A DNA stretch of 64,000 bases from positions 192,001 to 256,000 of the IMG/VR virus record IMGVR_UViG_3300024331_000007; one strand, given 5' to 3'. Below the pieces are notes generated by a model. It searched no databases, had not been told where the DNA came from, and saw only the letters and a list, made by a program, of their open reading frames with translations. Source of the DNA: a virus. Its lineage: Duplodnaviria; Caudoviricetes. Below are positions 26,986-64,000 of the stretch, in pieces (position 1 is the first letter of the stretch; every line of letters starts with the position of its first letter). The position numbers and the translations under genes are program-made.

Positions 26986-27770
26986 TTATAACTCACCTGA
27001 CTCCAATATGTGTAAAACTACATAGGACTCAAGTTCTTCTTGCGATGAAAACTCATATTTCCGCACATACCAGAAGTACCCCGGACTTTTGGGTGCGTAG
27101 CAAATTTCTTCGTAAATCCATTCGTGGTCTTCGTTTTTGATTATTCGACTTTCTGTGACGCAACCGGGTAATACAGTTTTGAGATTTTCCACGTTATCGA
27201 AGAAAATTCGCATAACGTATTTATAAGGTAACAATAAATGTCATCTAATATCTAAGGTCGGTTCTCCAGATTCCAACATGAAAAGAAACAGAAAATTAGA
27301 TCGTTCCTGTGAATTGTTAGGTATTTTGATTAAATTACAAGTTCGGCTTACAGCATACTTACTCGCGACATATGTTATACCGGGTTCACCCTCTTCAAAA
27401 CCTTTAATTGACCCAACATGATAAATGTATTTGTTTCCATTCCACCACGGATACAGAACCCAGTCACCGACATTCAGAATATTTTCGTTTTTATCATATC
27501 TATTGTAGTGATCCATTATGCACGTTCCAATGTCTTCAGAAACACATATTGTTCTTGTTCAGAGGGGTCATCCGATAGTTTTTCGATTGTTTTTGAATAT
27601 AGGTGATATTCGCAATGAAGGTATTCAATAGTGGCACATCGCTCACCGAATTGATCAACGTCCAGTGCCATTATCTGGCAAATTTTATAGCCGCGAAGGA
27701 ATGGAACAGACTTTGGGGTGTAAAGAACCCAGTCTCCAATCTTCAGGTTGTTGCCTAAACGATCCGTCAT
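26986..27770 (-). CDS. Three small proteins with LxxLE tail (26986-27234; SH3-like 27241-27516 and 27516-27770)
   Basis: YDKNENILNVGDWVLY, DRLGNNLKIGDWVLY; tails VVLHILES, LFLFMLES, VFLKTLER. Confidence 0.7.
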
Positions 27771-27801
27771 CGTCTACTTTTCCTTGTGTATTTCCAGAAG
27801 G

Positions 27802-28089
27802 TCATTGTGAATACTCCAATTGCAGCAGCATTACTTTTTGATTCCGTTCGGTTTCATTGGCGGGTAGTTTAGTAACAGCATATCCCCAGAATCCAGCAGT
27901 AGACCATTGAGCTAACCCTCACGCTATCGCTTTAGGAGAAAATGTCTTAAATGTAATCCATGCTTCAGTTTCAACTCCGACAACTTTGAACGATTCAATA
28001 ACGCCAACGCCAGTACCAAACCACGCATCTTCGTAGAAAACAAAGTCTCCAATGGCTAAGGAATTGCCGTATTTGTCAACATGGTTCAT
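27802..28089 (-). pseudogene. Family C paralog interrupted by one in-frame TGA
   Basis: MNHVDKYGNSLAIGDFVFY...KAIA*(27919-27921)GLAQW...KLPANETERNQKVMLLQLEYSQ*. Confidence 0.75.
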
Positions 28090-28487
28090 ATGATTACTTG
28101 GGTTCGTTTAGATAGAGGTTGACCGTACAGGCGAACACCCTTTGCACGTACAAGGTCTGCCGCTGACTGAGGATTGCTCTGGAACATCGACTCAAGTTCT
28201 ATTTTTCCGATGCCGCCTGCACACGTCAACTTAAAAATCTCATAGTTGCGCTGTGCATTGGCCTGTGCTCTAATCTTGAGCATATGAAGAAGTTGAGCAA
28301 CTTCTTTACTGTAATCGTTCTCACGATCCTCAAGAATGGCAAGCATCTCTGCGCCGTCATTCAGTTTTGTAATGTCAATTGGAATAATGCACTCTAAGCC
28401 TTCCATACAAAACATAACGATGAAGGTTTGTTCAGGCATTGATTCTTCATCTGTATATTCTTGTTCGATACCGTCTTCAATTCTCAT
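28086..28487 (-). CDS. Conserved jumbo-phage hypothetical protein
   Basis: FIVMFCMEGLECII...RAQANAQRNYEIF; TTGACT-17-TAAAAT-6 nt-ATG. Confidence 0.6.
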   Translation of the reverse strand: MRIEDGIEQEYTDEESMPEQTFIVMFCMEGLECIIPIDITKLNDGAEMLAILEDRENDYSKEVAQLLHMLKIRAQANAQRNYEIFKLTCAGGIGKIELESMFQSNPQSAADLVRAKGVRLYGQPLSKRTQVII

Positions 28488-28600
28488 GGGGTGATTTTAT
28501 CACTAAACCTTACGGAAGTCAATGTCAATGTATGTCGTTGATTCTAAAGGAATGTTTACCGAAACTGTCATATTTACAGTCGCTGTAAATTTACTAAACA

Positions 28601-29389
28601 TTATTTGCTGGATTCAACCATGTATCGATCCATCAATGTTTGGAGTAAAGCCAGCACATCACATTTATTCTGATATTTGCGCAGATATGCATAAAGAGGT
28701 CTGCCGTATGTCAAATCGTCGCCGTGTCCTTCCCCATCTACCAGTTCACGTCGCAATGTAATTAGATGCCCATCCTTCAATCGCAATCTTTGCTGAATGC
28801 GGAAGAACAATGCACGAACGAATGCTGGTGTGTTTCCACCCAACACCAAACCTCTCAGGTAACGCTTAATCTCGTTCACTGGAAGTTCAATATTCGTCTG
28901 ACCAAGCAGTTCCTTTGCATTGCGCAACGTTGTAATGACATTGGCAAGGTCCGTGCTGCTCAGGAAGATGTGGTCAAACTTTGGAAACTTCAATGTCTTG
29001 ATGCAGTAACGCTTTGTCTCTTCGTGCTGCGATACAAGCTGTATGGACAGCATCATTGCAAAGAAGATTTCGCCCAACTCTTTTGTGCTGTATTTCTCCA
29101 CCATCTCTTCGTTACGAAACGCTCGACTTTCTGTTATAAATGACAGTAAATTACCTTCGTTGACCTGTTCAGATTCATTATCAAGTTGATGCCAAAATGG
29201 TGCTAAAACAGATTCCATTGCATTATGAGTAAGTTCTTGCAATTCAGTTGCATCTTGCTCTGATAAATTCAATTCCTTTGGAAATGTTATAGTAACTGAT
29301 AATTCTTTCTCATTTACCGAAAAATGATATTGAGCATCGGGTGTCAAACACCGTCTTCCTTCAAATGTCAGTGGTAGTTTTTTAGCCAT
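28601..29389 (-). CDS. Hypothetical protein
   Basis: ORF track; ITESRAFR motif. Confidence 0.55.
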   Translation of the reverse strand: MAKKLPLTFEGRRCLTPDAQYHFSVNEKELSVTITFPKELNLSEQDATELQELTHNAMESVLAPFWHQLDNESEQVNEGNLLSFITESRAFRNEEMVEKYSTKELGEIFFAMMLSIQLVSQHEETKRYCIKTLKFPKFDHIFLSSTDLANVITTLRNAKELLGQTNIELPVNEIKRYLRGLVLGGNTPAFVRALFFRIQQRLRLKDGHLITLRRELVDGEGHGDDLTYGRPLYAYLRKYQNKCDVLALLQTLMDRYMVESSK

Positions 29390-29391
29390 TG

Positions 29392-30330
29392 TTATTGTCC
29401 TCGTGAAGTCAAAAATTGAATAACTTTTTCTTCCATACAGTCTTGTTCTGTGTATGGAATAATAAGCAAGGGAATATTATTCATTTTGCAAAATTTTTTC
29501 TTTTTTGAATCGGAAGACTGAATACTTTTGAACATCTGATTCATTGTTCTATTTTTACTACCAAAAGTTTGAGGAACATAATGCTGTATACCGTGATATT
29601 CAATCAAACCCAATAGATTGCTATTACTAAATATTGCAAAATCAAATGGCAACGGCTTTTTCTTTTTACATTCTGCCAATCTGTATTGATGTTCAAATTC
29701 TACCTTGTGCTTCTTTAGAATCGTAACCATCTTCTTTTCGCCCACCGAAAAAGAACATCTGGGGCAACCCTTGCCATATAAATGATTGTTTGGTTTCTGC
29801 GTGAACTCTCCATGCAATTTGCAAATGATCGATACATTCATCTTATTTCTGATATATTTTGTGTTACTGTAATCGTAAAGATTTCCATGAACCAAATTGG
29901 CTTTTTCAATAAATACTGGGGTGTCCATTGTTGCCGTTCCACCACATTTATCACATCCTTTACCATTCAAATGTTCATTAGGGGTTTGGAAGAAGTGACC
30001 ATGTTGTTTACATAGAATAATAACCTTTGTGCTGGAATTTTCATACTGTACTTTTGAGTAATCAAATGTATTGTTGTGAGACAAGATAGCTTTTCTAATA
30101 AAGTCTTCAGTAGTAGATTTTTGGGCGATGCTTCGTGATTCTACTGCGCATTTATGGCAACCACTTTTGGTTAGATGATTGCTGGGTGTTTGTTCATAAT
30201 ATCCATGTAACTTACAACCAATAACGACTTTCGTATGCATTGCAACATAATTGACACAATCATACAAAAACACGTCGCCATGTTGTCGTTGCGCTTTCAC
30301 AATGAATTCGTTATTTGTCAATCTCTTCAT
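29392..30330 (-). CDS. Homing-endonuclease-like protein (zinc-module repeats + PD-(D/E)XK), paralog of 6371-7321
   Basis: Three YDYS/CKxHG modules; FDFAI...LIEYHGIQHY. Confidence 0.8.
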   Translation of the reverse strand: MKRLTNNEFIVKAQRQHGDVFLYDCVNYVAMHTKVVIGCKLHGYYEQTPSNHLTKSGCHKCAVESRSIAQKSTTEDFIRKAILSHNNTFDYSKVQYENSSTKVIILCKQHGHFFQTPNEHLNGKGCDKCGGTATMDTPVFIEKANLVHGNLYDYSNTKYIRNKMNVSIICKLHGEFTQKPNNHLYGKGCPRCSFSVGEKKMVTILKKHKVEFEHQYRLAECKKKKPLPFDFAIFSNSNLLGLIEYHGIQHYVPQTFGSKNRTMNQMFKSIQSSDSKKKKFCKMNNIPLLIIPYTEQDCMEEKVIQFLTSRGQ

Positions 30331-30346
30331 ATACTCTTATTATACA

Positions 30347-30607: not shown

Positions 30608-30618
30608 AATTTCCTTTA

Positions 30619-30852
30619 TTACGCTTCAAGTAATCGAAGAAATGCGTATGACTCCATTTCTTTTTCGTCTTCAAATTCCCAAACTCTGATCAAATAATAA
30701 GATGAACCTGCAATATTAGCTGGGTATCTTTCGGATAGCTTCCATTTTTTAACAGATTCATCAAACAGAGATTCATCAAACAGAGATTCATATTTGAACT
30801 GACTGTTTGATGTAAAAATAAAATGCTTTGAATTGTCCAGCAGACATTTCAT
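30619..30852 (-). CDS. Small protein with LxxLE tail; paralog of 26986-27234
   Basis: VWEFEDEKEMESYAFLRLLEA vs KYEFSSQEELESYVVLHILES. Confidence 0.6.
   Translation of the reverse strand: MKCLLDNSKHFIFTSNSQFKYESLFDESLFDESVKKWKLSERYPANIAGSSYYLIRVWEFEDEKEMESYAFLRLLEA
30754..30791. repeat. 15 bp in-frame tandem repeat (2.5 copies)
   Basis: AGATTCATCAAACAG x2.5; gives ESLFDESLFDES. Confidence 0.85.
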
Positions 30853-30952
30853 ACTTTCTCCAGCCTAACAGGTATTTATCCACACCAGCAATCATGCGGG
30901 ATACATTGACTTTAACCATAAATATCTGTGGCACTTCTCAGGAGATTACCGA

Positions 30953-31702: not shown

Positions 31703-31726
31703 ACATTACACATCCTTCGTAATAAC

Positions 31727-32548
31727 CTATGCAGTATGTGCAACATTATTTGGTTTTTTAAAATACCAACCTTCAGGAGGAAACGGAATATCCTTTCGAA
31801 TCCTCCTGAACTTCCCCTCGATATTATAGATTGGCTTGCTTTCTTCTCGTAAGGCGGAGGCTCTAACCAACGAAGATGAGGCCAGCAAAGGATCACACTC
31901 TTCATAAACCAATCGTTCAAAATCGAAATACAAAATTTTCTTCTCCTTAATTTTCCTCATCTGTATTCGTTCCGCAACCGTCCATCGTGGTTTACCTTTT
32001 TGCTTTCCAGAAATAGCTTTGCTTGTTTTTAATCGAGACGCTGTGCTCCTTATTTTATACTTCCTACCAACAGTGGTGGAAATCAGTTCTCCAGATTTCA
32101 CACGAGGATCAGTAGTCATGCATCTTACTGTACTGCCAAATTTATCCTTATAGACTGCATATCCTTTATTTTTCTCACTCATCAGAGTGTATGCTTCTTT
32201 CCTAAGCCTAGCGAATGTTCTACTGGATTTAAGAACAATATTTCCTCGACTGCTATTTTGATTTTGCATAGCGGCAAATGCAATAGTCTGCGAACCTCCA
32301 TACGCCTTCCATAACAACCAATGAGCTATAAAATGCTGTCTGTAGGTAAGATTTATCCTGTTCCAAGGGTTTTCTCGAAAACTTTTGTATTGTGGAAATA
32401 GGTCTGTGGCCTTTGGACAAATATGGTGAGATTCCGTTTCCAACAGATAATGATTATCTTTCCAAGACTCAATACACCTCAAATAACGATTCAGGTAGTG
32501 TTCGTTGTGAGGTTTAAGTTTTAAAAGTTTCTCAATTAGGATTTCCAT
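31727..32548 (-). CDS. HNH homing endonuclease
   Basis: ESHHICPK...NRINLTYRQHFIAHWLLWK; ATAAATAGTTGTATG start context. Confidence 0.8.
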   Translation of the reverse strand: MEILIEKLLKLKPHNEHYLNRYLRCIESWKDNHYLLETESHHICPKATDLFPQYKSFRENPWNRINLTYRQHFIAHWLLWKAYGGSQTIAFAAMQNQNSSRGNIVLKSSRTFARLRKEAYTLMSEKNKGYAVYKDKFGSTVRCMTTDPRVKSGELISTTVGRKYKIRSTASRLKTSKAISGKQKGKPRWTVAERIQMRKIKEKKILYFDFERLVYEECDPLLASSSLVRASALREESKPIYNIEGKFRRIRKDIPFPPEGWYFKKPNNVAHTA

Positions 32549-32583
32549 ACAACTATTTATGATAACACCTCAGAACTGTTCAG

Positions 32584-33094: not shown

Positions 33095-33383
33095 ATCTTT
33101 TGAGAGCGGCCCTCAATGCTTCTTTTTTTGTGTCGCCAGTCCCTAACTGGCTATCTGAATAGTAACCAGCATTGACCACATAATAATCATCGTGAGGTCC
33201 TGATGTTTCATAGCAGATAAAGTCAGGTGTTACTTTCCTCAGAGTTATTTCAACCTCTTCGTCACTCATCCTATCAATAATCAAATGAGATTCCAGATTG
33301 ATATCATACTGTTTTTCTTTTAGATTTTCGATTTTCTTACCGTTGGCTTTGAGAGTTTTGATAACGCTGAATATTGTTTTCAT
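33048..33383 (-). CDS. Hypothetical protein
   Basis: Contains LGTGDTKKEALRAA, reminiscent of the family A GxTxEEAW turn-helix. Confidence 0.5.
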   Translation of the reverse strand: MKTIFSVIKTLKANGKKIENLKEKQYDINLESHLIIDRMSDEEVEITLRKVTPDFICYETSGPHDDYYVVNAGYYSDSQLGTGDTKKEALRAALKRYVWEEGVYNKYEADS

Positions 33384-34115
33384 TTGCTCTCCAATTTATG
33401 AAGGAATGCCTCGCTGTCCGATAATCTTGACAGAGTTGATGAATGTTGAATAAAAGCTCCACCATTCCATCGCATTACTAAAAATGTGCAGGGATACGCA
33501 TACATTCTGACAATCTCTCCATAACAAATTGATTTGATTCCAGATTGATTATATTGAATAAATGAAACTGGATCGCCGGGTTTAAAAGTATCAATCACTA
33601 GCTCACCAACTTTAAAAGAAATTCATCTTCTTGGGTAGCGGCTTTCATAAATCTAGAAGATCGCATATAAATCTGAGTAGTATCATTATATCCCACAATC
33701 ATATAGTGATGCAGTCCAATCTTCTTACCGTAGTATCCCTTCACATAACCAAAAAGGTCAGAATCACCGAATGTATCATATTCAGTAAACCTGACCAGTT
33801 GACCTATCGTAAATTTTGTCATTGTTCCAGTGTATGCAGGAAGGCATCCAATTCAGTTATTCGGCTCATGCTGTCGCCATACCAAACATCCCTTGTGCCA
33901 TTCAGAGACTGCACAATGTACATGTTTGGATAGCCCGGATAAGGACCAACAATCTCTGCATATTCAATCCACTCGCCGTCTTCCTGATAAGGCTCAAAAC
34001 GCATGCGAGAAACATACTCTCCCTGTTTATATTGGTATGTTTCTGGTTCGAGTTTTGGCACTTCCTTTTTTGGGAATGTCTTTCGAAGGAAGTCTTTAAA
34101 TGTTTGAAGTTCCAT
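33380..34115 (-). CDS. Three tandem SH3-like family C proteins (33380-33598, 33598-33822, 33819-34115)
   Basis: FKPGDPV, FTIGQLV, YKQGEYV starts; tails EAFLHKLESK, DEFLLKLVS, DAFLHTLEQ. Confidence 0.7.
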
Positions 34116-34121
34116 GCAGAA

Positions 34122-34672: not shown

Positions 34673-34990
34673 TTACGCCTCTACATGTTCAACTGCTTTC
34701 AGCAGAGCATCGATCTGTGCTGGATATTGGGCATGAAAATATTCCAGTAGCGTATCGTAATTGTCTCCTGTAACTACTTCTCCATTAATCTGAAAGGATC
34801 GGCATTTAACAACCGACTTGTTCTTCACGTCCAGAATGAGATTGCATTTCTTAATATCGCTGTTTCGAATATTCTTTACCAGAGATACTACTTCATCAGC
34901 AATAAAGTTTTCGGCATGTTGTGAATGATTAGGCTTTGAGGTATTTTTTGGGTTTAGGGGTCTGATTACATAACAACAAGTTATATACAT
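34673..34990 (-). CDS. Conserved hypothetical protein
   Basis: MYITCCYVIRP...CNLILDVKNKSVVKCR. Confidence 0.55.
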   Translation of the reverse strand: MYITCCYVIRPLNPKNTSKPNHSQHAENFIADEVVSLVKNIRNSDIKKCNLILDVKNKSVVKCRSFQINGEVVTGDNYDTLLEYFHAQYPAQIDALLKAVEHVEA

Positions 34991-37592: not shown

Positions 37593-38149
37593 TTATTTTA
37601 TACCCATTTCCAGCGCCTTCAATAACGCATCTTGCTCAGTAGTCTCAATGATTTCCCTAATCTTTGCCCAGAATTGATCCTCAGCACCATCCATCAGAGG
37701 GTAAACATTCCATCCATTGTTGGGAGGATACATAACACCGTTTATATAATCTACAGGTTTATCTCCCCACATAACTAGTATTCCGTTTTCAACTTTACCG
37801 TATATCGGATTTTCGGAAACCTTTTGTAAACCCCATTCTTTGTTAGTCATTAGATATTGCCGTTATCTCCAAAGTCATATGATTTGTCAGCCAGCATGGT
37901 GGTCCAAACATTACGCATTTTGTCTTCGGTTTCTTTCCACGATCCATTCAGCATAAACTCATGCGCCCACTGCTGTGTGTACTCGCAATACGGACAGCGA
38001 AGGCCATCGGGTGTGAGAACCAAAAGGCCTTCACCATCCAGATGATCTTTATCAGTTCGGCGTCCACTGCCGCACGTAAACGGATGGAACATACCTGAAT
38101 GCTGAAAGTCGTTGAATGATTTTATTTGGTCATCTGTGAATTTTGGCAT
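37593..38149 (-). CDS. Two hypothetical proteins (37593-37850 with tail DALLKALEM; 37850-38149 with HPFTC...CPYC)
   Basis: ORF track, coupled starts. Confidence 0.55.
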
Positions 38150-38352
38150 TAGTTCTCCAGTAAGCGCATCATTTCTGCATTGACAGTTATTCTGGCATGT
38201 TGCCAAGCCTGAGCCTCGGTTTCCCAAGCTCCACTCAGGATAATAATACGACCTCGCGAATATCGCGCCGTAATATATTTGCCAATGGCCGCATCTAAAA
38301 CTGCGTCTGCATTGGGATAGGCGGCAAGGACGATTTCTTTGTCAACGATCAT
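38149..38352 (-). CDS. Dispersed family A protein
   Basis: VDKEIVLAAYPNA...WETEAQAWQHARITVNAEMMRLLEN. Confidence 0.85.
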   Translation of the reverse strand: MIVDKEIVLAAYPNADAVLDAAIGKYITARYSRGRIIILSGAWETEAQAWQHARITVNAEMMRLLEN

Positions 38353-41330: not shown

Positions 41331-42089
41331 TTATCCTTCCAATATCGCCAGCATTGCTTCTTCGGCGTCCATCTCTCTAACTAATTTTTCGGGAATGGCC
41401 CACAATGGCATTGCTGACGATTTATCTATTATGGGGAGATGTGTGACCCAAAAAATCGCGGGATTCGTGTCTCGTGTGTACTTCATTATCTTACCTGCGC
41501 GGACACCAGAATCCAGACTGGCAAACGTTTCTCCACAGAAAACATCATCTTTTGGATTGAACCAAACAAAGTCACCGAGGTACATTAAACATCCTCCAGC
41601 ATTGCCAACATTGCTTCTTCATCGCTCATCTTCCTCAGTAAATTGTTTGGTATTGCCCAAAGAGGAACTGAATCTTTACTTGATGCAAAACATACTGATG
41701 ACACCCAACATAGTTTGTCAGCTAACTTAAAAATCTGTCCCGCCTTAAATTCGGTTTCATGAAGGTTATTATTGGTGCCACTCCCGCACCCGCACCAAGC
41801 ATCGTCGCATTGTCTGAACCAAACAAAATCTCCAGTATTCATATCAGGCTTCCAGTATTGCCAGCATAGCTTCTGCGTCTTCAAGCGGTTTAACCATACT
41901 TTTTGGAATAGCCCAAAGAGGATAAGGAGAAGTTGAATGTACGGGGAGTGGCGTCACCCAAAATACATCACAATGTTTGTGTCTATTCTCATCAATAATC
42001 TTTCCAATGGTCCCCTTTCCACTTGAATAGAACGGAGGGCAGAATACATCGTTGTTCGGATCAAAAGTAACGTAGTCGCCAATCTTCAT
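41331..42089 (-). CDS. Three tandem closely related SH3-like family C proteins (41331-41585, 41585-~41842, 41844-42089)
   Basis: GDFVWF/GDYVTF...AGKI...(F/C)WV...PLWAIP..LxxM.DEEAML(A)(I/M)LE. Confidence 0.8.
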
Positions 42090-51931: not shown

Positions 51932-51936
51932 ATCAA

Positions 51937-51942
51937 TATTTA
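51937..51942 (-). promoter_or_regulatory. T4-like late promoter TAAATA (exemplar of at least 15 copies)
   Basis: Also at 7327, 13467, 17650, 18628, 21399, 23197, 32554, 37554, 43815 (minus) and 1070, 23247, 35021, 46114, 51954, 62633 (plus); precedes structural and endonuclease genes. Confidence 0.75.
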
Positions 51943-51953
51943 GCAATCGCTGA

Positions 51954-52022
51954 TAAATACAAATGCCAACCGCGAGTCTGAACACTCCGTTGGCTCTAAT
52001 GTCAGAGAGGACATCAGCTATG
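51954..52022 (+). ncRNA. Structured 5' leader motif, copy 3
   Basis: TAAATA-caaat-GCCAAC-CGC-GAGT-ctgaac-ACTC-C-GTTGGC-tcta-ATGTC-agagag-GACAT-cagct-ATG. Confidence 0.8.
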
Positions 52023-53432: not shown

Positions 53433-55246
53433 TAGTCGTAGTACTCCCCTTCCGTCCAGCGAACAGTATGAGTTACTTTCTCAGTGTGCTGACCGGGGTG
53501 GTGCATCCATCGATTGCAGGTCCCAATAACATGATGAGTTGATCCTTTGGCGAGTCTGGTATTGTTGCAATAGATATGACCAATCGCACATAAAATGTAT
53601 CGAAATAGTTTCATTAGTTCTCCAACATGTACATCATTTGATGTTCAACATAATGCCAAGCATATTCCCATGCGCCTTCTTCTGTGTACTTACTGGTGGA
53701 AATAATACTGCCATTGCGATCAATCACAATATCGTAACTATATCGAACAACATCTGTGAAGATGCCATTATCCATCCTGTAATAATAAGTTTTTCTATTG
53801 TGCTTTAAACAATAAGCCTCGGGATATATTTCAAGGACCTTTTCCTTAAAATCTATGACTCCAGAATCTTCATTGTTTGGTATTCTATCCACGTCCATGC
53901 ATCTCTCCAAGATTCTTCCTCACTGTTTCCAACCCCGATAGTATGATGACCTGATCCCGTAACATAGTGCCATACTACGCTTCTACTATAATATGGAAAC
54001 CCGTCCACAAATGTTGCCGATGGATAAACAGCCAGAACTTTGGCTTTATAGTCTATGACTCCAACTTCTTCAGCATCTCGTTCTGAATGTAATACCATGC
54101 GTTTTGCCATGCACCATACTCCCAATAAGTATTTCGTGCCATCTGAACATCGCCGTTCCAAACATCAAAATATCTGCAACTAGTTATTCCATCGGGCTTG
54201 ACTGCGCGATTCCAGCCATGTTCAATACAGGTTGCCTCTGGATAAACAGCCAGAACTTTGGCTTTGTAATCTATTTCTCCAGCTTCGCCATCATTTGTGC
54301 TGATATTATTGTCCACGCTCTTTCCCACGCCCGTGTTTCGCTATCACAATGAGGACTCAATATATAAAATGTGAATCCTCTTTCCTCGGGTATTTCTGGT
54401 GACGCTCTGGATAGAATCACATAGGTCAATTCCAAGTAGTTCGCAACTCGGACTGGCTTCTTACAAAAGGCCAAAGGATAAATGGACTTGACTAATTCCT
54501 CGTAATTTATTCTCCCAGCTTCTCCAGCATTTCCCTCTGTATGTTCTGCCACGCCACTATCCATGCTGTTCCTCTCGTTCGTGTGCTTCCATGCAGCCAT
54601 TGCCACGTTTCCTGTCCTTCCCAATGAATAGACCATTGCCAAGTCATATCCATATCCCACGGTTCTCGGTGAATCATTCTGGCATTTGGAAATGTGGCTA
54701 GAACATGAGCACGAGCTATATTACCAAAATTACCAATATCTTCAGTGCGATAATGTTCCTGAGTATTCTTCATATGCTATCTCATTGTACATTTATTGTC
54801 GAAGTTTTTCCATCATCATTTCGTTTACTGTATCCCATGCTCTCGACCAAGCTTCCAAAGGACTATCACCAATTCCCATATTGAACCCATTTAGTTGCGG
54901 AGGTTCTTTCTTGTATTTGTGCATCTCCCCAGAATAAATTATGTACATTGGCGGGAAGGTTTTCCAACCATCTCTGACTGTCATATTGGCATTTGGGTAT
55001 GCCGTATGAACCAGCTTCATGAGTTTTCGAATTTTGCGAGTAGTTCTTGCTGAATCGATTTCCACGCTCTTTTCCATGCCTCCCTTTCTGTTTGTGCGTA
55101 CGCTCTGATGAACTGGTTTATGGATTGTTTGCTCCATGTGACCAAATAATATGGCGGTTCGTTTCTATTATTCTCACCAATATTCTTGCCATCATTAAAC
55201 ATGAGGCTGGCATCAGGATAAATCTTCAGCACTTTTTCTTTAACTG

Positions 55247-55471
55247 TCATTTTTCCAGCTTCATCAGCATAATTGCATTGATATATTCCATTGCCATTTC
55301 CCATGCTTCGGAATATGAGCTACGAATGGACACGTCCAGATACTATTCGTATCCATGTTTAGTTTTGTTTCCGCTGCACACAACATACCCTTTATTATCT
55401 CTGGAGTATGCTGTTACGACTCGCGCACTAGGATAGATGTTCGTCACGAAATGTATTGGATTTTCTTTCAT
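55247..55471 (-). pseudogene. Family A unit with in-frame TAG
   Basis: MKENPIHFVTNIYPSA...KHGYE*(55343-55345)YLDVSIRSSYSEAWEMAMEYINAIMLMKLEK*. Confidence 0.8.
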
Positions 55472-57470
55472 CAGTCTGCCAACTTGTCCAGCATTTTCTT
55501 GTCCATAATCTTTCGCCCCAAAGACCACATTTTCCGAGAAGATAAAGGTCCATGAATAAGTGAATAGCCTGATCCATCGCCATCCAGCACAAATACGATA
55601 TATCGTTCGTCTCCTTGAGTTGGGTAGAACTGGGCGTTTGGAAAATATTTCTTCACATATTTTTCATCTTTGGTCATGATTCCAACTTTTGCAGCATTAA
55701 TTCAGCTATGATTTTCTTTGCTTCTCTCCAAACTATTGATTCGTCCTCTTCTATGCGATGCCAAATCCATCCCAAAGTTAAATATGGCTCTCTTTCAGTT
55801 CCAATTGAAATTGCTGCCTGAGCATAATTCCATCGTATGAGTTTAGCCTCGGGATATATTGATAGAACACACTCTTTATCTGTCATGATTCCAGCACCAT
55901 AACCATACATCTTAGAATTGCTGACTTTGCTGATTCCCATGCCTCTTCTTCTGTCGGTAACCCCGAAAAACTGAAATATGAATTTTCGGGATATCCAGTG
56001 TATGCTCTAAACCTGTATAGATCATCCTTTGAATACGGATTTTTCACAATAAAAGCATTTGGATATGAGTTCACAACAAACTCTTTTGCTGTCATGACGC
56101 CAGTTTTCTCATCATTCTTGCATTCAGTATTCTTTTTGCATCGTTCCATTGAACTGACTCCCTTTTACTTGCCTTGATTAAGGCCCATGACCCATAATGT
56201 TTGCCTTCGTACTCAATGATTAAAAAGTCTTCAGTATCAGGCAGCTTTTCAAACCTAGCATTAGGAAAGACAGATAGTACAAACTCTTTGGCTGTCATTC
56301 TTCAAACTTCTGTAGCATCCTTTTCGTTATTTCCTGCCTGACATATCTCCATGCTGCTCTCGTATCCTTATACGTATACCAACCATATGTTACCCATAAA
56401 TAGTTGGGTGGCCGTCGCTCTAGGTATATTGCAATGAGATTACGGTCCACGCACCAGCGAACAAGGTTGGCTTCTGGATACACCGATCTAACAAATTGCT
56501 TATCAGTCATGATGCCAGCTTTCTGATCATCTCAAGTTCAATATTTTCCTTCAATCTTTTCCAAACTTCGCGCGCATCATTTCCAGTCATGACATATAAT
56601 TGAGTATTCGGTTCCAACCGATATGTGGAATAACCAGTGACGTATTCAGAATCAACCCATGCATGAGGGTATAATGATTTTACAAACTGCTTATCAGTCA
56701 TTGTGCAAGTTTCCTCAGCATTTCGACTTCAATACTTCCTCGCAATCCCGTCCACACTTCGTCTTCATTACTGCGTCTGGTAACTGTCCATTCTTCTTTT
56801 TCAAGTTTAAATAGGCAGTATCCAGCAATATAATGGGTCATAACCTCAGCCTGAGGATACATCGATAGAACGAACTCTTTATCGGTCATAATGCCAACTT
56901 TCTCAGGATGCTTTTGTTCAGTATATCTCTGGCAGCTTCCCATGCTGCCTCTTCTGTTTCGTACATCGGTATAGACCAATTTGATGCATACACGCCGACA
57001 ATATAGAATCGGCCCGGTTCTGGAGTTGTATAGGTCGCGCAGAACGCATCTGGATTAAGGCTTTGAACAAATTCTTTAGCCGTTAACTCGCCAGCTTGTC
57101 CAGAATCCGTCCGTTTGTTATTTTCCTTGCTCCGCACCACGCTTCCTCTTCTGTATTGTGAAGAATTGTTCTGCTGTCCATAAAACCCAGATTGAAAACA
57201 TAGTAGTATGTTTTCCAATTATATCTGTCTGGGCATACACATGCCTCAGGATAAATTGCAAGAACGAACTCTTTATCTGTCATTCTTCTAACTTCCTAAT
57301 CATTGCAAAATTAATATCTTCTCTGGCGTACCGCCAAGTCATGTTCTCTGTTGTTTCAGCGCAATATCCTATTGTCTTATAAGGAGAATGACCAATCTCA
57401 ATGCACATACCAGATTTAAATGAAATAAATTTGGCGTTTGGATAAACAGCCAACACGAACTCTTTGTCAG

Positions 57471-57689
57471 TCATTGTTCCAACTTTCTCAGCATATTCCA
57501 CTCAATGATTTCTCGTGCATCTTTCCATGCGTTCTCTGGTGAATTACAAAGTCCACTCAGAGCTTCAAAACTATAGAGTCCCATTCCTCGTACTACCTAA
57601 TATTGTTCTGGCGCGTTACCATAATCCTCACCGACTATTTTAATCGCTGCATTTGGGTGAAACATTCGAACAAATTGTTCAGGTGTCAT
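57471..57689 (-). pseudogene. Family A unit with in-frame TAG (absent from ORF track)
   Basis: MTPEQFVRMFHPNA...PEQY*(57597-57599)VVRG...SPENAWKDAREIIEWNMLRKLEQ*. Confidence 0.85.
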
Positions 57690-58130
57690 ACTATTGAGTC
57701 GTTTCCCTCTAACTTATTCAGCATTCTTTGTCCAACTCTTTCTCGTGCTTCGGCCCATGCCTCATCTGGAGTTTCACAAGTTCCAGCAACCCAATCGTAA
57801 CAAACTTTACCATCAAATCGTATTACAATATAACCAACGTTGTTTTTGTATCGCCAACTCCAGCATGTTGACAATTGAACATCATCATACACGCTCATTA
57901 GGAACTCTTTATCTGTCATGATTCAAATGCCTTTAAGGTTTCCGTCAATATTCGTTCTTTACCATTGCGCCACATTTCTTCTTCAGTATCTCCCGACACA
58001 CAAAACGTAACTATCGATGCATGATGACCTGTTCGAGTGGCCCAAATTTCATAGCCTTTTTTACCCGACCAAAACACCTTTGTACGATATATTCGTGGAT
58101 ACACCGATCTAACAAATATCTCGTCTTCGG

Positions 58131-58381
58131 TCATTGTTCGAGTTTTTCCACCATTCGTCTTTGTGTTGTTAGCCACGCTCGTCTCCACGCTTCTTTAGCA
58201 TTCCACGGCGGAAGCCACCCCAATTTTTTATATTCGGGGGATCATTGGGTTGAGATGATAAATTGTCATACCAAATATAACCTTTAAAAGAATCAGTATT
58301 TCCAACCCACTGAATGACTTCCTTAGTCTGTGTTAGATATGCCTTTGGAAAAACCGACAGAACTTTTTGTCGATAACTCAG
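58131..58381 (-). pseudogene. Family A unit split by a -1 frameshift at an A6 run (pseudogene or programmed frameshift)
   Basis: Frame 0 LSYRQKVLSVFPKA...PPNIKN; -1 frame KKLGWLPPWNAKEAWRRAWLTTQRRMVEKLEQ*; A AAA AAT at 58229-58223. Confidence 0.75.
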
Positions 58382-58613
58382 GCGCTTTCTAACTTGTCCA
58401 CCATGTCTTTTAGTATCTGTTCCCATGCCGCTTTCCATGCCTTCTTTGAATCATAAATTCTGTCACACAATTTTACAGTCTCGTAGTAATTGTTCCAGAA
58501 TCCTTTACATTCAGCCCTGTACTGAACTGATCCGTACCAAAACTCTGCGTTCGGATGAATCTGAAGAACTCGCTGCCTGTGCGTCAGGTGTTTTCGAACA
58601 TTCGTTTTAACCG

Positions 58614-58835
58614 TCATCGCTCTAACATTCTTAGCATTGTTTTTTCGTCATCCAGAATCTCAATCATTTCAGGGTCCATTTCGCAAAAGCAACCACCACG
58701 AATCTCCATATAGACTCGTCCGTCGTGACATTCAAACACCTTACCCAATTCAGATATGTCCTGCCATTTGATAAAAGGTCTGGTATGCCACACCCAATCT
58801 CCAACATTTATGAGTTTGCCATTCTTATCTTTCAT
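58614..58835 (-). CDS. SH3-like family C gene embedded in the family A array
   Basis: MKDKNGKLINVGDWVW...DEKTMLRMLER; ATGA overlaps on both sides. Confidence 0.8.
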   Translation of the reverse strand: MKDKNGKLINVGDWVWHTRPFIKWQDISELGKVFECHDGRVYMEIRGGCFCEMDPEMIEILDDEKTMLRMLER

Positions 58836-61028
58836 GACTCCAGCCTTCTCAACATGAATCTGTCAACAATTCCGACTGCCTTTTGCCATGCGGAAGGTGC
58901 TGTATGAGCACAGGAAGCACACCAATTGTGGCCTTTCTCATCAATCCAAATCTCGTAACGATAATGTCCATCGGTATAAAACCTGAGATGGGCAGATGGA
59001 AAGATTGCCTGAATATGCTGCTTCGGAGTCATTCTGCGAGCTTGTCCAACATCTGTTTTTGAACTGTTCTCCATGCCTGTTCCCAAGCCCTTTCTGGTGT
59101 GTAGTCTTCCGCCAGTGTCACATCCCATGATTGCATTCCCTTTTCTTTTCGAACTTTAACAGACCACACACTCAAACCTGCAAATTTGAATGGGAATAGT
59201 GTTGCAGTTGGATATATTGCTTTAACGCTTTCTTCGGCTGTCATGGTTTAAATCTTCTGCGAGCCATTGCTTTTTCTTCCATCTCTTCATACATGCGCTG
59301 ATCCCACTCTCTTTCTTCCTCGCGCAGTTTTTCGAAGTATTCCTGTTCTAGCCTGTAGTCTTCTTCTCGTTCTCTCCAATACTGATCCATCGGGTCTTCT
59401 GCCAACTTGTCCAACATCTGCTGTTGAATGGCAATCCATGCTTGCTCCCATGCAACATCCTCAATCATATCTGGTGGACAAAACGTAGTGCTGATGGTTG
59501 CCAATTTCTGTTCAAATGGAAAGTCAGTAATCTCAATGAGAAACTGATCTTCCTTTGCATCACGAGCAATACGTTGGCTCTTGTGCGCAATTGCATTTGG
59601 ATATATTGCCAACACATGTTCTTTAGCTGTCATATTCCAGCTTCCTTAACATTTTGGTTTGAACATTTTTCCATGCTGACTCCCATGCATTATCAAGCGT
59701 AGACCCCACACCTATAGTATACATCTTTTTGTGCCAGTGCTTAATGTTAAAATCTGGGTAGTCGGAGCTAATTTCAACCAAATATATACTTAACGGAACC
59801 TTGCGGCCATCTCTTTTGTTTTGCAGGACTTTAATCTCTGCTTCGGGATAGATATTCAGAACATTTTCTTTAGCAGTCATATTTCGAATCTCTGTACCAT
59901 ATCTCTCATTATTCTGAATGCCGCCTGTTTCCAAACCAAAATTTCAAACATTCTTCTTGGAAGTGGATGATCTGTTGGCCTATGAACAGATGCCAGTGTT
60001 TGTTGATCCTCAGAAGTAGCAGGTGCACTGAGTAACAAATACGTTGTTCCTGATTTCCGCCCAACTCCGAATTTGTGTGTGAATGATTCTGGGTAGGAAC
60101 TAAGCACTATTCGTTTGGCCTCTCGTAGTGTCATGCGTTTTCCAGCTTCTCCAACATTTCATGTTGAACATCGCGCCATGCGATTGACCAAGCCAATTCT
60201 TCACTATCAGCCATTGTCATGTAATGCATTATAGGGGCCCCATCATATCTGATCCTGACTCGTCGCACATAATACATTAAACGACCATAAATCTGAATCG
60301 TGTCCGCTTCAGTTGTGCAATGGGCGCTTGGATATACCGCCATTACATTTTCCTTATCTGTCAAATGCGCCCTCCAACTGTAGTAGCATATTATGCTGAA
60401 TTTGTTTCCATGCTCGATTCCATGCAATATTTTCTGTGGCGCAAGTGCGGCCAATAAATCTGTCGTTCCATGATTTACCGCCGCAACATTTCTTATCACG
60501 GCATGGCTCGTTATAAACATACAAATAGAAACCATCATCCTCTCGGATGCAGGCATGTGGATATATTGCTTTGACTTTTTGTTCGGCTGTCTTTCTCATT
60601 GTGCCAACTTTGCCAGCATATCTCGCTGAATTTCAGTCCATGCCGCTCTCCACGCATTCTTTTTACATGCCACAGAAGGTCCAGCGTAGCCATTACTTCC
60701 TTCTGGACAACATTTTGGATTCCTGCAACCAAACGCCAGAACATAATAGTCAACTTGTTCTGATCCAACATCCACTCCTCGAACGTAGGCATGCTTATAA
60801 AGATTGATTACCTGATGTTTTGGTGTCATTGCTCTAACCTTCTAACCATTCCGATTGCAATCTTACCCCATGCATTTTTCCACGCAATTTTTGGCGTAAC
60901 ACCAACCCCAAGCCATGTTTCCGCCAATTCGCTGACACGAATATAAATTACCCAAAACTTTTTCACATGCTCGTATTTCTTCTGCTTTGCCGCTGGATAA
61001 ATCCGCCGCACATTTATCATGTCTTCGT

Positions 61029-61230
61029 TCATGATTCCAACTTCCTTAACATGTCTTCGCTCCAAGTTCCGTGGATGCAAGATACGAATGACCAACCAGC
61101 GCGTCATCAAAATGCTGAACTGTGTATCTGTAACAGGATGCGAATCGTTGTTCCGTGCAAAATGCCTGCGGATAAAACTTCAAAACCTTCTCACGAACGG
61201 AAACGAGTTCTGTTTGATCCTTGGAATAAG
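61029..61230 (-). pseudogene. Family A unit with internal deletion/frameshift
   Basis: VREKVLKFYPQA... lacks the AW helix; EDMLRKLES* survives in another frame ending 61029; 5' boundary approximate. Confidence 0.6.
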
Positions 61231-62194
61231 ACATTCCTGAACTCCTTTCGTAATGGATAACCAAGTCCAATCCATGCTTGTTCCCACAACTGAGCATCGT
61301 ATTTGAAACTGCCATAAAATGTGTGATTATTGAATACTAACCACCTGCTTCCAACCTTAACACCGCGAACTTTCTTCTTTCTTCCACACACAGTTGCCCA
61401 ACCATCTTCAACTTTGGCTGTGGGGAAACACAATTTGACTTTTTCTTCAGTAGTCATGACATTAGCTTTTTCAACATCCGTTTCTGGATTCTTAGCCACG
61501 CCCATTCCCACAGATTTTCCTCAGACACCTTGTAGTAATCCATCTTGAAGATGAGCCATTTCCCGTCAGCAATCTTAATGCCAGAAACTTTATACTTGCG
61601 TTGCTTGAATCCATTAGCAGTTGACCGTTGGTAAACAGCTTCGGGATAAACGTTCTGTACCATCTCTTTGAAGTTCATTTGATTGCCAACTTTCTCAGCA
61701 TTCTTTCTTCAATCTTTTTCCATGTTCTTTCCCACACATATTCTCGGGAGAATCCACTAATGACATCCTGTACGGTATTTTCGTCCGAATACAACCAAAC
61801 CTCATACAAAAACTCATCAATACTTCCATGAGGGACAATCCTAAATTCAGTACGAGGATACAGGTTCATAACCATTTTTTCGTAATCTAGCTCGCCAACT
61901 TCTTCAACATTTCCTGCTGAATCTTTTTCCATGTACGTCTCCAAAGAATGTGCTCAAACTTTCCACCATATGCGTAACATTTATTACCGATCCAAACACC
62001 CTTGGCCATAATTTCTTTGCCGTAGTGCGATCCATCCGTTGACCAATCCCATGTTGATTGTGGTATCCAACCCCATTTCAATACAGCCTCTGGATAAACG
62101 GATTTTACTTTATCTTCTGCCCTTAATGAGGCAAACGTTCCTACACTCTTATTTTGAATGTTTGGGAACGTTATGTTCTTAGTCGATTTGTTTT

Positions 62195-62413
62195 TCATCC
62201 CATGATCTTTCTGAGTATATCTCGTCCTGCAATGCGTAAAAGATTTGTGATCTTGATTTCTGGAGCTTGCCGTTTCGTCTTGTGCAAAAAACAATAGTTG
62301 TTTCCAGATTCAGCCTGTAGCTTGCAACGATGTTTTTCCAAATACTTGTGAACTTCAGCATCGCTCATCAGCGAAATATCTGCGTCTCCGCAATAAATGC
62401 ATCTTTTACTCAT
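62195..62413 (-). CDS. Cys/His protein embedded in array, with DILRKIM tail
   Basis: CIYC...HRC...C; ATGA coupling. Confidence 0.6.
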   Translation of the reverse strand: MSKRCIYCGDADISLMSDAEVHKYLEKHRCKLQAESGNNYCFLHKTKRQAPEIKITNLLRIAGRDILRKIMG

Positions 62414-62632
62414 GACTCAAACTGCCTCATGATCTTGAAGTTTAATTCTTTCTTCAATTTCACCCAAACGCCATCTTCTGTTAAAGACCGTTGTAATTTG
62501 TCGTAATCTCCGAGTCCAAGTGATCCAACATATCGGACACCATCAGAAAATTTCAACGAAACAACTCTCGCATCTGGACACAACTCTTGCACGAATTGTT
62601 GGTCTTCGCTCATTAGAAACGACTTTCTATGC

Positions 62633-62705
62633 TAAATACTTATGCAGTTCGCGAGTCTCGTGAACTCCAACTGCCCTAACGCCATTTCGAGGCAATCAGC
62701 ATATG
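62633..62705 (+). ncRNA. Structured 5' leader motif, copy 4
   Basis: TAAATA-cttat-GCAGTT-CGC-GAGT-ctcgtga-ACTC-C-AACTGC-cctaac-GCC-atttcga-GGC-aatcagcat-ATG. Confidence 0.8.
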
Positions 62706-63317
62706 AATACTTATCCCAATAATAACACATTTTACGTTTACGCATATCTTCGCCAAAATGGAACACCATATTACATAGGTAAAGGAAACGGAGATAGGGC
62801 ATTTCGTAATTATCGTAAACGATGTGTTCGTCCTCCAAAAGATAAATCTCGTGTAGTCATCCTTTTTGAGAACTTATTTGAACCAGCTTCCTTTCAAATA
62901 GAGATGCTATTTATTCGCATGTTTGGTCGTATTGATCTTGGAACTGGGTGCCTTCATAATAGAACCAGCGGCGGTGAAGGCATCAGTGGTTATCGTAGAA
63001 GTCCAGAATCAATCGCTAAACAAATTGAGACTATGAAGCGAAACAACAAGAAACAAAGTAATGCAACCATTCTGAAAAGAATAAACACTAGAAAACTGAA
63101 TGGAACCTTGAATCCTAATACATTAGATTCACTGCATAAAACAAAAATCAAACGAATTGCCAATGGATCGTATAAGCGCACACCAGAAGCTATCGCTAAA
63201 CAGATTGCTACGCAAAAACGAAATGGCACTAATAAAAGGACTCCAGAATCTATCGCCAAAGGATTAGCAACAAAATTAGCCAGAAAATCAATAACGATAG
63301 ACAATCCTACCCATTGA
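62703..63317 (+). CDS. GIY-YIG homing endonuclease with three (K/R)R(S/T)PE(S/A)IAK repeats (antisense insertion)
   Basis: FYVYAYLRQNGTPYYIGKGNGDRAF...LHNRTSGGEG. Confidence 0.85.
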   Translation: MNTYPNNNTFYVYAYLRQNGTPYYIGKGNGDRAFRNYRKRCVRPPKDKSRVVILFENLFEPASFQIEMLFIRMFGRIDLGTGCLHNRTSGGEGISGYRRSPESIAKQIETMKRNNKKQSNATILKRINTRKLNGTLNPNTLDSLHKTKIKRIANGSYKRTPEAIAKQIATQKRNGTNKRTPESIAKGLATKLARKSITIDNPTH

Positions 63318-63503
63318 TAATGAATATGGTGATAATTCCAACAATACTTCGTCTCCCGGTTCAATTCGGATGTTGTTTTTGCGCAACCTTCCACCCAAAT
63401 AAGCTGTGATCTGCTGATTACCCGGAATCTCCACCAACCATGTTGTATTGGGGAGCGTCTTTAAAATCCTACCTCTTAGTTCTACCTGTTCGTCGCGTGG
63501 CAT
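63288..63503 (-). CDS. infA: Translation initiation factor IF-1
   Basis: ELRGRILKTLPNTTWLVEI...TAYLGGRLRKNNIRIEPGDEVLLELSPYSLSMGRIVYRY; AGGAG SD. Confidence 0.92.
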   Translation of the reverse strand: MPRDEQVELRGRILKTLPNTTWLVEIPGNQQITAYLGGRLRKNNIRIEPGDEVLLELSPYSLSMGRIVYRY

Positions 63504-63520
63504 GAATCTCCTTTGATTAA

Positions 63521-63549
63521 ATTATACCGAATTTCTTACTTACTGTCAA
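63521..63549 (-). promoter_or_regulatory. Perfect-consensus sigma70 promoter upstream of infA
   Basis: TTGACA-17 nt-TATAAT. Confidence 0.9.
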
Positions 63550-63745
63550 GCCCTTTAAACTTGTCCAAAATCCTTTTGTTTGTTATACTTAAAGACCATT
63601 CCCATGCTTGTATTTCGTTAGCCCATGAATGTGCAATGATTTTTTCGTCGGCTACAATAAACCAAAAGTTTGGGCATTCTTCAGGAACTCCTCTACAATA
63701 TGCGTTTGGAAACAGTTTTATCATTTGGTCTTTGGCTTCGTTCAC
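63536..63745 (-). CDS. Family A protein
   Basis: GTG start overlapping upstream TGA; MIKLFPNA...EIQAWEWSLSITNKRILDKFK. Confidence 0.75.
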   Translation of the reverse strand: MNEAKDQMIKLFPNAYCRGVPEECPNFWFIVADEKIIAHSWANEIQAWEWSLSITNKRILDKFKGLDSK

Positions 63746-63975
63746 AAGTTCTCCAACTTCCATAACATTGCCTCGCCTTTAGTCATCTTTCTGACATTGT
63801 GGCCTAATTTGTGTCGTGTCTCATTATTTGGTGACCATACAGTCAAGTAAACTTCGTCCATAATCTTAAGAATTTCAACAACCTGTCCTGTGTTATTGAA
63901 GTCTTGCTGACTTTCGAAATCTCTCCAAAAGACAACATCGTCAACGCCGACTTTCTTTCCGTTAATGTCCTTCAA
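63742..63975 (-). CDS. SH3-like family C protein
   Basis: TTG start; KDINGKKVGVDDVVFW...GEAMLWKLENL. Confidence 0.8.
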   Translation of the reverse strand: MKDINGKKVGVDDVVFWRDFESQQDFNNTGQVVEILKIMDEVYLTVWSPNNETRHKLGHNVRKMTKGEAMLWKLENL

Positions 63976-64000
63976 GAATTTTCTAGTCGCCACAGCATTG
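63972..64000 (-). CDS. 3' end of an upstream tagged gene entering from the right edge
   Basis: ...AMLWRLENS* with TGA at 63974-63972. Confidence 0.65.

Follow-up and report, generated by a model that had tools for sequence, protein, structure and literature searches.

A short C-terminal K-L-E helix shared by many unrelated small proteins of an uncultured T4-related jumbo phage

Overview and gene calls

Roughly one gene in six of the uncultured T4-related jumbo phage represented by a 359,890-bp virus contig encodes a tiny protein ending in the same short helix, hydrophobic-L-x-K-L-E, here called the tail. It is found on at least four unrelated protein bodies, and its description as a portable module maintained by selection on the protein is held with high confidence; what it does is much less certain and is weighed below. 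The stretch analysed, the window, is the 64,000 nt lying at bases 192001-256000 of this contig, and its coordinates are used throughout unless "genome" is stated. Products encoded in the window include an NAD-dependent ligase, a clamp-loader ATPase and a head-morphogenesis protein; no nucleotide relatives of the window were found among GenBank phages by megablast.

Genes were called with a simple codon-usage and ribosome-binding-site model (n = 613, covering 88% of the genome). Because this caller drops some of the array genes and over-extends some starts, all gene counts are approximate and the tails were taken from stop-defined open reading frames (ORFs). The strict tail pattern is [MFLIV][MLIV]xx[LF]E followed by 0-4 residues at the C-terminus; in the numbering used, the Glu is 0 and upstream residues are negative (M -5, L -4, K -2, L -1), with the cap at +1. 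A curated member list for 26986-64000 also admits variants with A, G or V at the Glu position or with a few residues beyond the motif.

Abundance and extent of the tail

The strict tail ends 83 of the 613 called genes, as against about 1.5 expected from the internal rate of 4.8e-4 per position. Among 3260 ORFs of at least 35 codons it occurs in 113, about 10 of them low-complexity and the others real array genes; this total includes roughly 20 plausible ORFs that the caller had dropped. In 26986-64000, where the initial annotation had counted 55-60 tail proteins, the curated list holds about 55 (29 strict, the others variants), and all of the tails cited there were located at their positions, on the minus strand. 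The members do lie in that span, but the feature extends genome-wide, with arrays at genome 67-70.5 kb, 125-130 kb, 183-187 kb, 245-261 kb (window 53.6 kb onward) and 262-268 kb.

The tail is an amphipathic helix, short and capped, with the consensus (S/T-x-E-E)-A-[M/F/V]-L-x-K-L-E-[S/N/G], and M(-5), L(-4), K(-2), L(-1) and E(0) stand out sharply in its amino-acid logo. One residue separates the motif from the stop in 60 tails, two in 34 and three or four in 9, with longer distances in some. The residues past the E are S (24), NA (13), N (8), Q (6), K (5), G, R and many others; S, N or G, the classic helix C-cap residues, mark the end of the helix right after the E, and are kept even with more residues beyond. 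A recurrent variant has Val in place of the Glu, as in K-L-V-Y-A (L034 5185-5687) and K-L-V-S (window 33598-33822), and the tail has been wholly lost from the family A member at 61191-61505.

Conservation of the protein rather than the DNA

The tail is kept by selection on the protein, not on the DNA. All six Leu codons are in use at Leu(-4), and the synonymous-codon identity among tails is 0.40, as compared with 0.41 expected from genome codon usage (0.48 for neighbouring and 0.39 for distant tails). The amino acids of the last codons are thus conserved with the codons at background identity, in line with the persistence across different codons reported in the initial annotation. The tail also persists at genes that have no coupled downstream ORF, a point on which that annotation had made its case depend: ten stringently uncoupled tail genes (no ORF start within 30 nt of the stop) keep the motif, with GAA to GAG at 8 : 2. 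Nucleotide-level conservation that vanishes at uncoupled ends was therefore not seen.

A start lies within 12 nt of the stop for 85 of 104 tail genes, with an ATGA overlap in 46, and GAG at position 0 and NNG at -1 are enriched over all tails. This enrichment depends on spacing. Where the next start is 4-9 nt past the Glu codon, GAG outnumbers GAA by 30 : 7 and 35 of the 37 preceding Leu codons have G as their last base; with other spacings or no next gene the ratio is 23 : 44, near the genome's 1 : 3 (Fisher 5e-6 between the classes). The genome's usual GGAG-to-start spacing is 4-8 nt, with 5 nt the optimum, and GGAG stands 5 nt upstream of the next start in 25 coupled genes. The initial annotation had placed the GGAG 2 nt from the ATG, which holds for the class ending LES-stop/ATGA, where there is no codon bias, but not for the LENA-stop and LEx-TAATG classes, where the distance is 5 nt. 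A Shine-Dalgarno signal, in the sense of a GGAG-like core 4-9 nt upstream with biased codons, is thus present for the suitably spaced subset only and, since GGAG is favoured only at 4-9 nt, the ribosome-binding site is an overlay on the protein motif.

That the K-L-E codons are kept solely as a purine-rich Shine-Dalgarno for the coupled next gene, the competing explanation offered in the initial annotation, accounts for the codon choice at suitable spacing, including the GAG/NNG enrichment and the 25 genes with GGAG at 5 nt, but not for the conservation of the tail. At spacings of 3 nt or less and at uncoupled ends the codons are near background and the amino acids stay, the hydrophobic -5 and -4 positions lie outside any Shine-Dalgarno, synonymous identity is at background, and 220 coupled genes without a tail supply the Shine-Dalgarno by other means. 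A DNA-only origin, hardly credible as the sole cause, was therefore rejected on the codon identity and the uncoupled genes, and kept as an overlay. There is scarcely more to be said for an effect of the nascent peptide, in which the last residues in the ribosome would tune termination for re-initiation at the overlapping ATGA. The close starts of 85 of the 104 tail genes and the 46 ATGA overlaps would suit it, as would the gene for a phage translation initiation factor inside the array, but such a role has only a very slim chance, because the distance from motif to stop varies and uncoupled genes keep the tail, which is moreover predicted to be a folded helix.

Protein bodies that carry the tail

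The largest group, family A, has about 60 copies with the consensus M-T-D-K-E-F-V..Y-P-x-A ... A-W-x-x-A-x-x-x-I-x-x-x-M-L-x-K-L-E-S. An AlphaFold2 model of the 57083-57283 protein (predicted local distance difference test, pLDDT, 90) has a helix at residues 3-10, strands at 15-21 and 24-30 and a helix at 45-65, in an a-b-b-b-a arrangement with three strands and a final helix of 21 residues. This is the topology of double-stranded RNA-binding domains (dsRBDs), which top the exhaustive VIA structural list for the model (Z 5.0-6.1, root-mean-square deviation 2.3-3.2 over 55-62 residues), a VIA Z below 8 denoting a common arrangement only. Family A has no Pfam match that would place it among dsRBDs by sequence, nor their basic RNA-binding motif: the K-K-x-A-K that opens helix 2 in dsRBDs is replaced by A-W-x-x-A.

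Family C, with about 30 copies, has the consensus M-K-I-G-D-Y-V ... S/T-D-E-E-A-M-L-W/Y-K-L-E-N-A. The model of the 63742-63993 protein (AlphaFold2, pLDDT 93) is a small five-stranded barrel of the SH3/Tudor/KOW kind plus a 10-residue helix at 72-81; Foldseek matched it to Tudor, KOW, YorP and PetP with probability 0.97-1.0 and a template-modelling (TM) score of 0.5-0.6, and the family profile gave weak matches to eS4 and L24. DUF7205, the Pfam phage SH3-like family, had no match genome-wide at E up to 1. The family A body is thus modelled as dsRBD-like and that of family C as SH3/Tudor/KOW-like; predicted topology and structural matches are what these bodies have in common with the known domains, and the folds are silent on the tail.

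The carriers are sequence-unrelated, as had been claimed from the start: when the profiles of families A and C were compared with hhalign, the alignment was confined to the last 11 columns, and the predicted folds differ. Further carriers are a third family (26986, 30619), a family at genome 125-138 kb whose members end S-E-Y-V-L-F-M-L-E-W-S, three small membrane proteins, and proteins of 234-276 aa without an assigned family. The tail is accordingly portable across unrelated bodies. Scans of ten tail proteins against Pfam and PHROGs gave no significant match, the larger tail-bearing proteins had none in Pfam, and profile searches against PDB sequences returned only spurious matches (streptavidin, an antibody) or weak barrel matches. 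The members in 26986-64000 are as follows, in window coordinates, with (-) for the minus strand.

26986..27213 (-) third-family small protein, YVVLHILES then GEL; shares an ...EF..E.(L/M)ESY..L..LE end with 30619-30852
27241..27516 (-) SH3-like (GDWV) protein, FLFMLES + 8 residues
27516..27770 (-) SH3-like protein, YVFLKTLERA
27802..28089 (-) SH3-like gene with in-frame stop 27919-27921, frame-2 read-through; distal piece ends VMLLQLEYSQ
30619..30852 (-) third-family small protein, YAFLRLLEA
33380..33598 (-) SH3-like protein, EAFLHKLESK
33598..33822 (-) SH3-like protein, variant EFLLKLVS (V for E)
33819..34115 (-) 98-aa protein, DAFLHTLEQ
34673..34990 (-) 105-aa protein, weak variant DALLKAVEHVEA, borderline member
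37593..37850 (-) 85-aa protein, another body, DALLKALE then MGIK; stringently uncoupled
38149..38352 (-) isolated family A (dsRBD-like) member, EMMRLLEN
41331..41585 (-) SH3-like family C, EEAMLAILEG
41585..41842 (-) SH3-like family C, EEAMLAMLEDV
41844..42089 (-) SH3-like family C, AEAMLAILEA
53614..53898 (-) family A, MMYMLEN
53853..54161 (-) family A ORF, TMKILES, start uncertain
54053..54328 (-) family A, MLKKLES
54271..54564 (-) family A, MMAKLEK
54507..54773 (-) family A, MLEKLGE (G for E)
54793..55020 (-) family A, variant MMEKLRQ
55017..55304 (-) family A, LLAKFENS
55471..55677 (-) family A, MLDKLAD
55674..55886 (-) family A, MLQKLES; first row of alignment A3
55883..56149 (-) family A, MVMVLES
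56092..56298 (-) family A, MMRKLAS
56295..56510 (-) family A, MLQKFEE
56507..56701 (-) family A, MIRKLAS
56698..56943 (-) family A, MLRKLAQ
56886..57218 (-) family A ORF, ILRKLAL, start uncertain
57083..57283 (-) family A, ILDKLAS; modelled protein (pLDDT 90, helix 45-65)
57280..57501 (-) family A, MIRKLEE
57471..57584 (-) 37-aa family A fragment, NMLRKLEQ
57686..57919 (-) family A, MLNKLE then GNDSIV
57916..58176 (-) family A, TLKAFES
58378..58617 (-) family A, MVDKLESA
58614..58835 (-) SH3-like family C inside the family A array, TMLRMLER
58832..59128 (-) family A, FMLRRLES
59029..59244 (-) family A, MLDKLAE
59241..59633 (-) family A body, internal MLDKLAE + ~50-aa charged extension
59623..59934 (-) family A, MLRKLEYDS
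59877..60134 (-) family A, MVQRFEI
60131..60364 (-) family A, MLEKLENA
60354..60599 (-) family A, MLLQLE then GAFDR
60596..60829 (-) family A, MLAKLAQ
60826..61032 (-) family A, MVRRLEQ
61191..61505 (-) family A body, basic end in place of the tail (natural tail-less control)
61454..61678 (-) family A ORF, MLKKLMS
61675..61932 (-) family A, MLRKLAIK
61887..62198 (-) family A, MLKKLAS
62195..62413 (-) Cys-rich 72-aa protein, another body, variant ILRKIMG
62410..62613 (-) family A, IMRQFES
63536..63763 (-) family A, degenerate ILDKFKGLDSK
63742..63993 (-) SH3-like family C, EAMLWKLENL; modelled protein (pLDDT 93, helix 72-81)
63972..64000 (-) 3' end of SH3-like family C gene leaving the window, EEAMLWRLENS; one copy of a 33-nt exact repeat

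Is the helix part of each fold?

Burial of the helix as an ordinary core element of each fold had been named at the outset as an outcome that would speak against a tag. The helix is indeed ordered and confidently predicted in both models, and so is probably packed on its own domain, but the relatives without a tail and the conservation of the polar rim point to more than a core role. In longer metagenomic proteins with tandem-fused relatives of family A, the W..A...I...hydrophobic core of helix 2 is kept and K-L-E is absent. Phage barrels of the DUF7205 type align, by structural likeness, to residues 1-71 of family C only, and the dsRBD matches mostly end at residue 58-60 of the 66 in the family A model. 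In about 100 members of family A, drawn from many phages, the information content is 2.0 bits at K(-2), 2.6 at E(0) and 1.6 at S(+1), as against 0.4-1.2 for the other solvent-side positions of helix 2; in a set of 170 sequences E(0) is present in 81% and K(-2) in 73%.

The tail is also carried by membrane proteins that lack a globular body. One of these lies within an SH3 array here and in L009 and L034, where its juxtamembrane and tail segment is conserved; the membrane segment has diverged in L009, the more distant of the two, and the L034 copy is 83% identical overall. In family A, the N-terminal helix showed no signal of covariation with E(0)/K(-2), which argues neither way. The tail-less relatives, the information in the polar rim, the membrane carriers and the fixed S/N/G stop together indicate that, at least in part, the helix is more than a core element of each fold.

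Relatives in other phages and evolution of the arrays

A HMMER profile of family A matched 1427 protein clusters (50% identity), and the strict tail ends 114 of the 142 small proteins among the top matches. Two of the top matches, P0107 and P0002 (836 and 1813 aa), were set aside as repeat proteins matching part of the profile, P0002 being a DUF3586 repeat protein. Arrangements of 2-4 family A bodies in tandem are found in the longer metagenomic proteins P0003, P0058, P0079, P0091, P0102 and P0115, one of them with a C-terminal membrane region and all without K-L-E.

A 353-kb relative, syntenic with the window over the array, a 1155-aa protein, the dUTPase and the clamp loader, has the tail on 26 of 56 database-called genes. 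Arrays of SH3-like proteins with the tail were found in L009, L011, L012, L013, L015, L019, L022, L024 and L034, and a degenerate DNA pattern for A-M-L-W-K-L-E-N revealed such arrays on several metagenomic contigs, L011 having 28 tail ORFs in 9 kb. Another search with a degenerate tail pattern had no match in IMG/VR contigs, and tblastn of GenBank phages with one family A and one family C protein likewise had none.

Synteny with genome 66-76 kb is shared by L009 and L034, at about 70% identity in the flanks; the gene content of the array differs, and the arrays match only in short patches at tails and junctions (32-74 nt in L009). Within the present genome, a 33-nt exact repeat (genome 255972 and 256650; window 63972 onward, L001 650-874) spans just the R-K-M-S-D-E-E-A-M-L-W of two diverged SH3-like genes, which points to occasional local gene conversion; 7 pairs of junctions have at least 21 identical bases, and 22 have at least 17. 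In 52-64 kb, promoter-like and terminator-like sites are no more frequent than expected from shuffled sequence, the array shows no enrichment of strong sigma-70-like sites, and T4 late promoters (TATAAATA) are unassociated with the arrays, only one preceding a tail gene.

What the tail may do

The tail is a short capped amphipathic helix module placed at the C-terminus of many unrelated small bodies in this phage and its uncultured relatives, and its L-E codons are recruited as the GGAG of the next overlapping gene only at suitable spacing. The explanation that best fits these observations, put at a little less than an even chance as a whole, is that the hydrophobic residues at -5, -4 and -1 would pack on whichever body carries the helix, and the polar rim of K(-2), E(0) and the S/N/G cap would present one common surface. 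By way of that surface more than 100 variable mini-domains would most likely join a single partner common to them all, be it a hub of the host or of the phage, or one another. A shared function in interaction, taken alone, is possible but falls somewhat short of even. In its boldest form, that of a universal docking tag by which more than 100 mini-binders (dsRBD-like, SH3-like, membrane-anchored and others) join a single hub through the K-L-E-capped helix, the idea is unlikely; the hub might be a host machine acting in division, proteolysis, replication or translation, or else a protein of the phage itself. Of the portable docking tag first proposed, the portability has stood up, on the evidence of the unrelated bodies, the protein-level conservation and the uncoupled genes; the single common partner has not, no partner having been identified.

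Several observations weigh against a shared docking function. No phage receptor with PDZ_2, TPR_16, Tubulin/FtsZ, ZipA_C or FtsA was found with the Pfam models. About 12 members of family A have A replacing the E, and about 10% of members extend 3-50 residues beyond the motif, so that neither the E nor a free C-terminus is indispensable. In both AlphaFold2 models the pLDDT of the tail helix is above 90, and it may be an ordinary packed element of each domain; E, A, M, L and K with S/T and N/S/G caps suit any short autonomous helix, and part of the likeness could be convergent.

The main rival is that the tail would be a structural cap with a genetic legacy, the helix only stabilising each domain with no common partner, and new or swapped array genes having inherited the last ~10 codons along with the ribosome-binding site and start of the next gene. 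This account, rated as somewhat unlikely, draws on the ordered, high-confidence helices of both models, their idealised composition with N- and C-caps, and the GGAG overlay at the right spacing. The hyperplastic arrays suit it as well: inside the ~70% identical flanks of L009 only the 32-74-nt tail and junction patches match, the 33-nt exact repeat covers a tail alone, and neighbouring tails share more synonymous codons than distant ones. Overall synonymous identity is nevertheless at background, so that in each family the tail must have been maintained through selection on the protein. Conservation is far higher at K(-2), E(0) and the cap than at the remaining exposed positions of the helix, a Glu close to the C-terminus of a helix is not stabilising by general helix-dipole rules, the tail is kept on membrane proteins with no domain to cap, and related folds exist without it.

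Pairing of tail with tail, in which self-complementary K-L-E rims would form helical bundles and mixed oligomers, possibly membrane-anchored, is quite improbable. K(-2) and E(0) would flank the hydrophobic stripe as the e and g positions do in coiled coils, and a tail-bearing membrane protein lies inside the SH3 array in three phages; the hydrophobic face, however, is predicted to be in use within the molecule, the helix of family C has only about 10 residues, and there is no obvious membrane member in the largest family A array (genome 245-261 kb). A complex prediction for family A and family C members, run as alignments and without controls, scored 0.17 against a mark of 0.32, which is evidence neither way. 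More improbable again is a degron of the ClpXP/Lon type or a protease or capsid-targeting site like that of T4 gp21, for which the C-terminal position and the invariant Glu might speak. The resemblance to the L-x-E of gp21 sites noted in the initial annotation breaks down on inspection: such sites have L/I at P3 and E at P1, but in the tails L and E are adjacent, with L/F at P2 in 103 of 103 and K (52), M (10), R (9), T (8) and L/I (only 11) at P3 (-2). Cutting after the E would moreover remove just one or two residues, and T4 targets its capsid with an N-terminal peptide; the small tail proteins begin M-T-D-K-E-F or M-K-I-G-D and show no leader of the Alt/IP kind. A degron or capsid signal read at the free C-terminus fits poorly with final residues that vary and with 1-4, at times about 50, residues beyond the motif (extensions of 3-50 residues); degrons of the ssrA/ClpX C-motif type have a free end with the last 2-3 residues fixed and non-polar, such as L-A-A, which the tails lack.

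Other features in and around the arrays

The tail VMLLQLEYSQ, cited in the initial annotation at 27802, is present, but as the distal piece of an SH3-like gene (27802-28089, minus strand) split by an in-frame stop: a 56-aa proximal ORF and a 38-codon tail-bearing piece are read as one gene across the stop at 27919-27921, making this either a pseudogene or a candidate for read-through. In 53.6-62.6 kb many family A ORFs seem to begin about 58 nt inside the preceding gene (e.g. 55883-56149, 56698-56979, 54271-54660). These long forms, reported by database gene callers, arise because the conserved Ala-Trp (GCA TGG) makes an ATG in another frame that is open to the real M-T-D-K start, and are probably artefacts, not genuine overlaps.

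Inside the family A array, 63288-63503 (-) encodes a 71-aa protein homologous to translation initiation factor IF-1 (Pfam eIF-1a, E 8e-18), directly following a perfect TTGACA-17-TATAAT promoter-like site at 63549-63521 (-); the gene is found at the same place in three related contigs (L031 8326-8541, L032 and L033). Twelve near-identical promoter-like TTGACA-17-TATACT sites lie in genome 141-203 kb (-), including one at window 11174, many of them directly before genes, which suggests an early promoter consensus particular to this phage. The array also contains an ORF on the other strand, 62703-63317 (+), of 204 aa, with an N-terminus that looks GIY-YIG-like by eye and no Pfam match at E 0.01; insertion of a homing endonuclease is the probable explanation. 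In addition, 31727-32548 (-) is a homing endonuclease by PHROG. Adjoining the array, 48476-51985 (-) encodes a 1169-aa protein whose sole match, at 26% identity over 290 aa, is to an S8 peptidase from a jumbo phage of Sinorhizobium; its 1155-aa counterpart is at the same position in the 353-kb relative (L031 12138-15605).

Comparison with known systems and significance

Large families in which variable bodies share one constant C-terminal element are known among the PRANC/F-box adaptors of poxviruses and the SOCS-box and BTB adaptors. PRANC itself is a domain of about 40-50 aa on poxvirus ankyrin-repeat proteins, with a Skp1/cullin ligase as partner, and we know of no Skp1 in bacteria. The tail is no helical domain of the PRANC/F-box kind, its shared element being only 8-12 residues long, and it sits on several unrelated folds in a phage, so that the analogy, drawn from general knowledge, is one of logic only. 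The capsid-targeting signal of T4 is N-terminal and removed by cleavage after (L/I)-x-E; like the tail, it is a short portable peptide with a conserved Glu on unrelated proteins of T4-type phages, from which the tail differs in being C-terminal, in its adjacent L and E and in a P3 that is mostly Lys. The C-terminal peptide of E. coli FtsZ, A-F-L-R-K-Q-A-D, and the membrane-targeting helix of MinD, F-L-K-R-L-F, also have a hydrophobic pair and basic residues about 5 from the C-terminus, in a short amphipathic helix by which many partners or the membrane are docked; this likeness holds little information and is a lead only, as the D-I-P part of the FtsZ peptide is absent from the tail and the tail has its conserved Glu.

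At the DNA level, promoter-early stem-loops (PeSL) are intergenic non-coding promoter/terminator motifs, conserved as DNA, involved in shuffling in the hyperplastic regions of T4-type phages (PMC2839356, PMC4122927). In both cases arrays of small accessory genes in T4-type phages gain, lose and swap genes at repeated boundaries, and the arrays here are hyperplastic between conserved flanks; in contrast to PeSL cassettes, the tail genes overlap by 4 or 1 nt, leaving no spacer between them, and what is conserved at the boundary is coding sequence, at the level of the protein. Literature searches found no description of a shared tail helix. The nearest concept at the DNA level is thus the PeSL cassette and, at the protein level, the viral adaptor repertoire with a constant C-terminal module, as in PRANC; to our knowledge, adaptor repertoires of this kind have not been described for phages.

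Even as a structural cap, the tail offers a clean case of dual coding, with a ribosome-binding site laid over a protein motif only where spacing allows, and shows how hyperplastic arrays of overlapping mini-genes are built up. If it is an interaction tag, a single partner would explain the purpose of about one-sixth of the genes of a jumbo phage along with that of well over a thousand uncharacterised metagenomic protein clusters, and the 10-residue peptide would be a handle with which to fish that partner out; a universal docking tag, if true, would be to bacterial viruses what the F-box/PRANC adaptor repertoires are to eukaryotes and the viruses that infect them.

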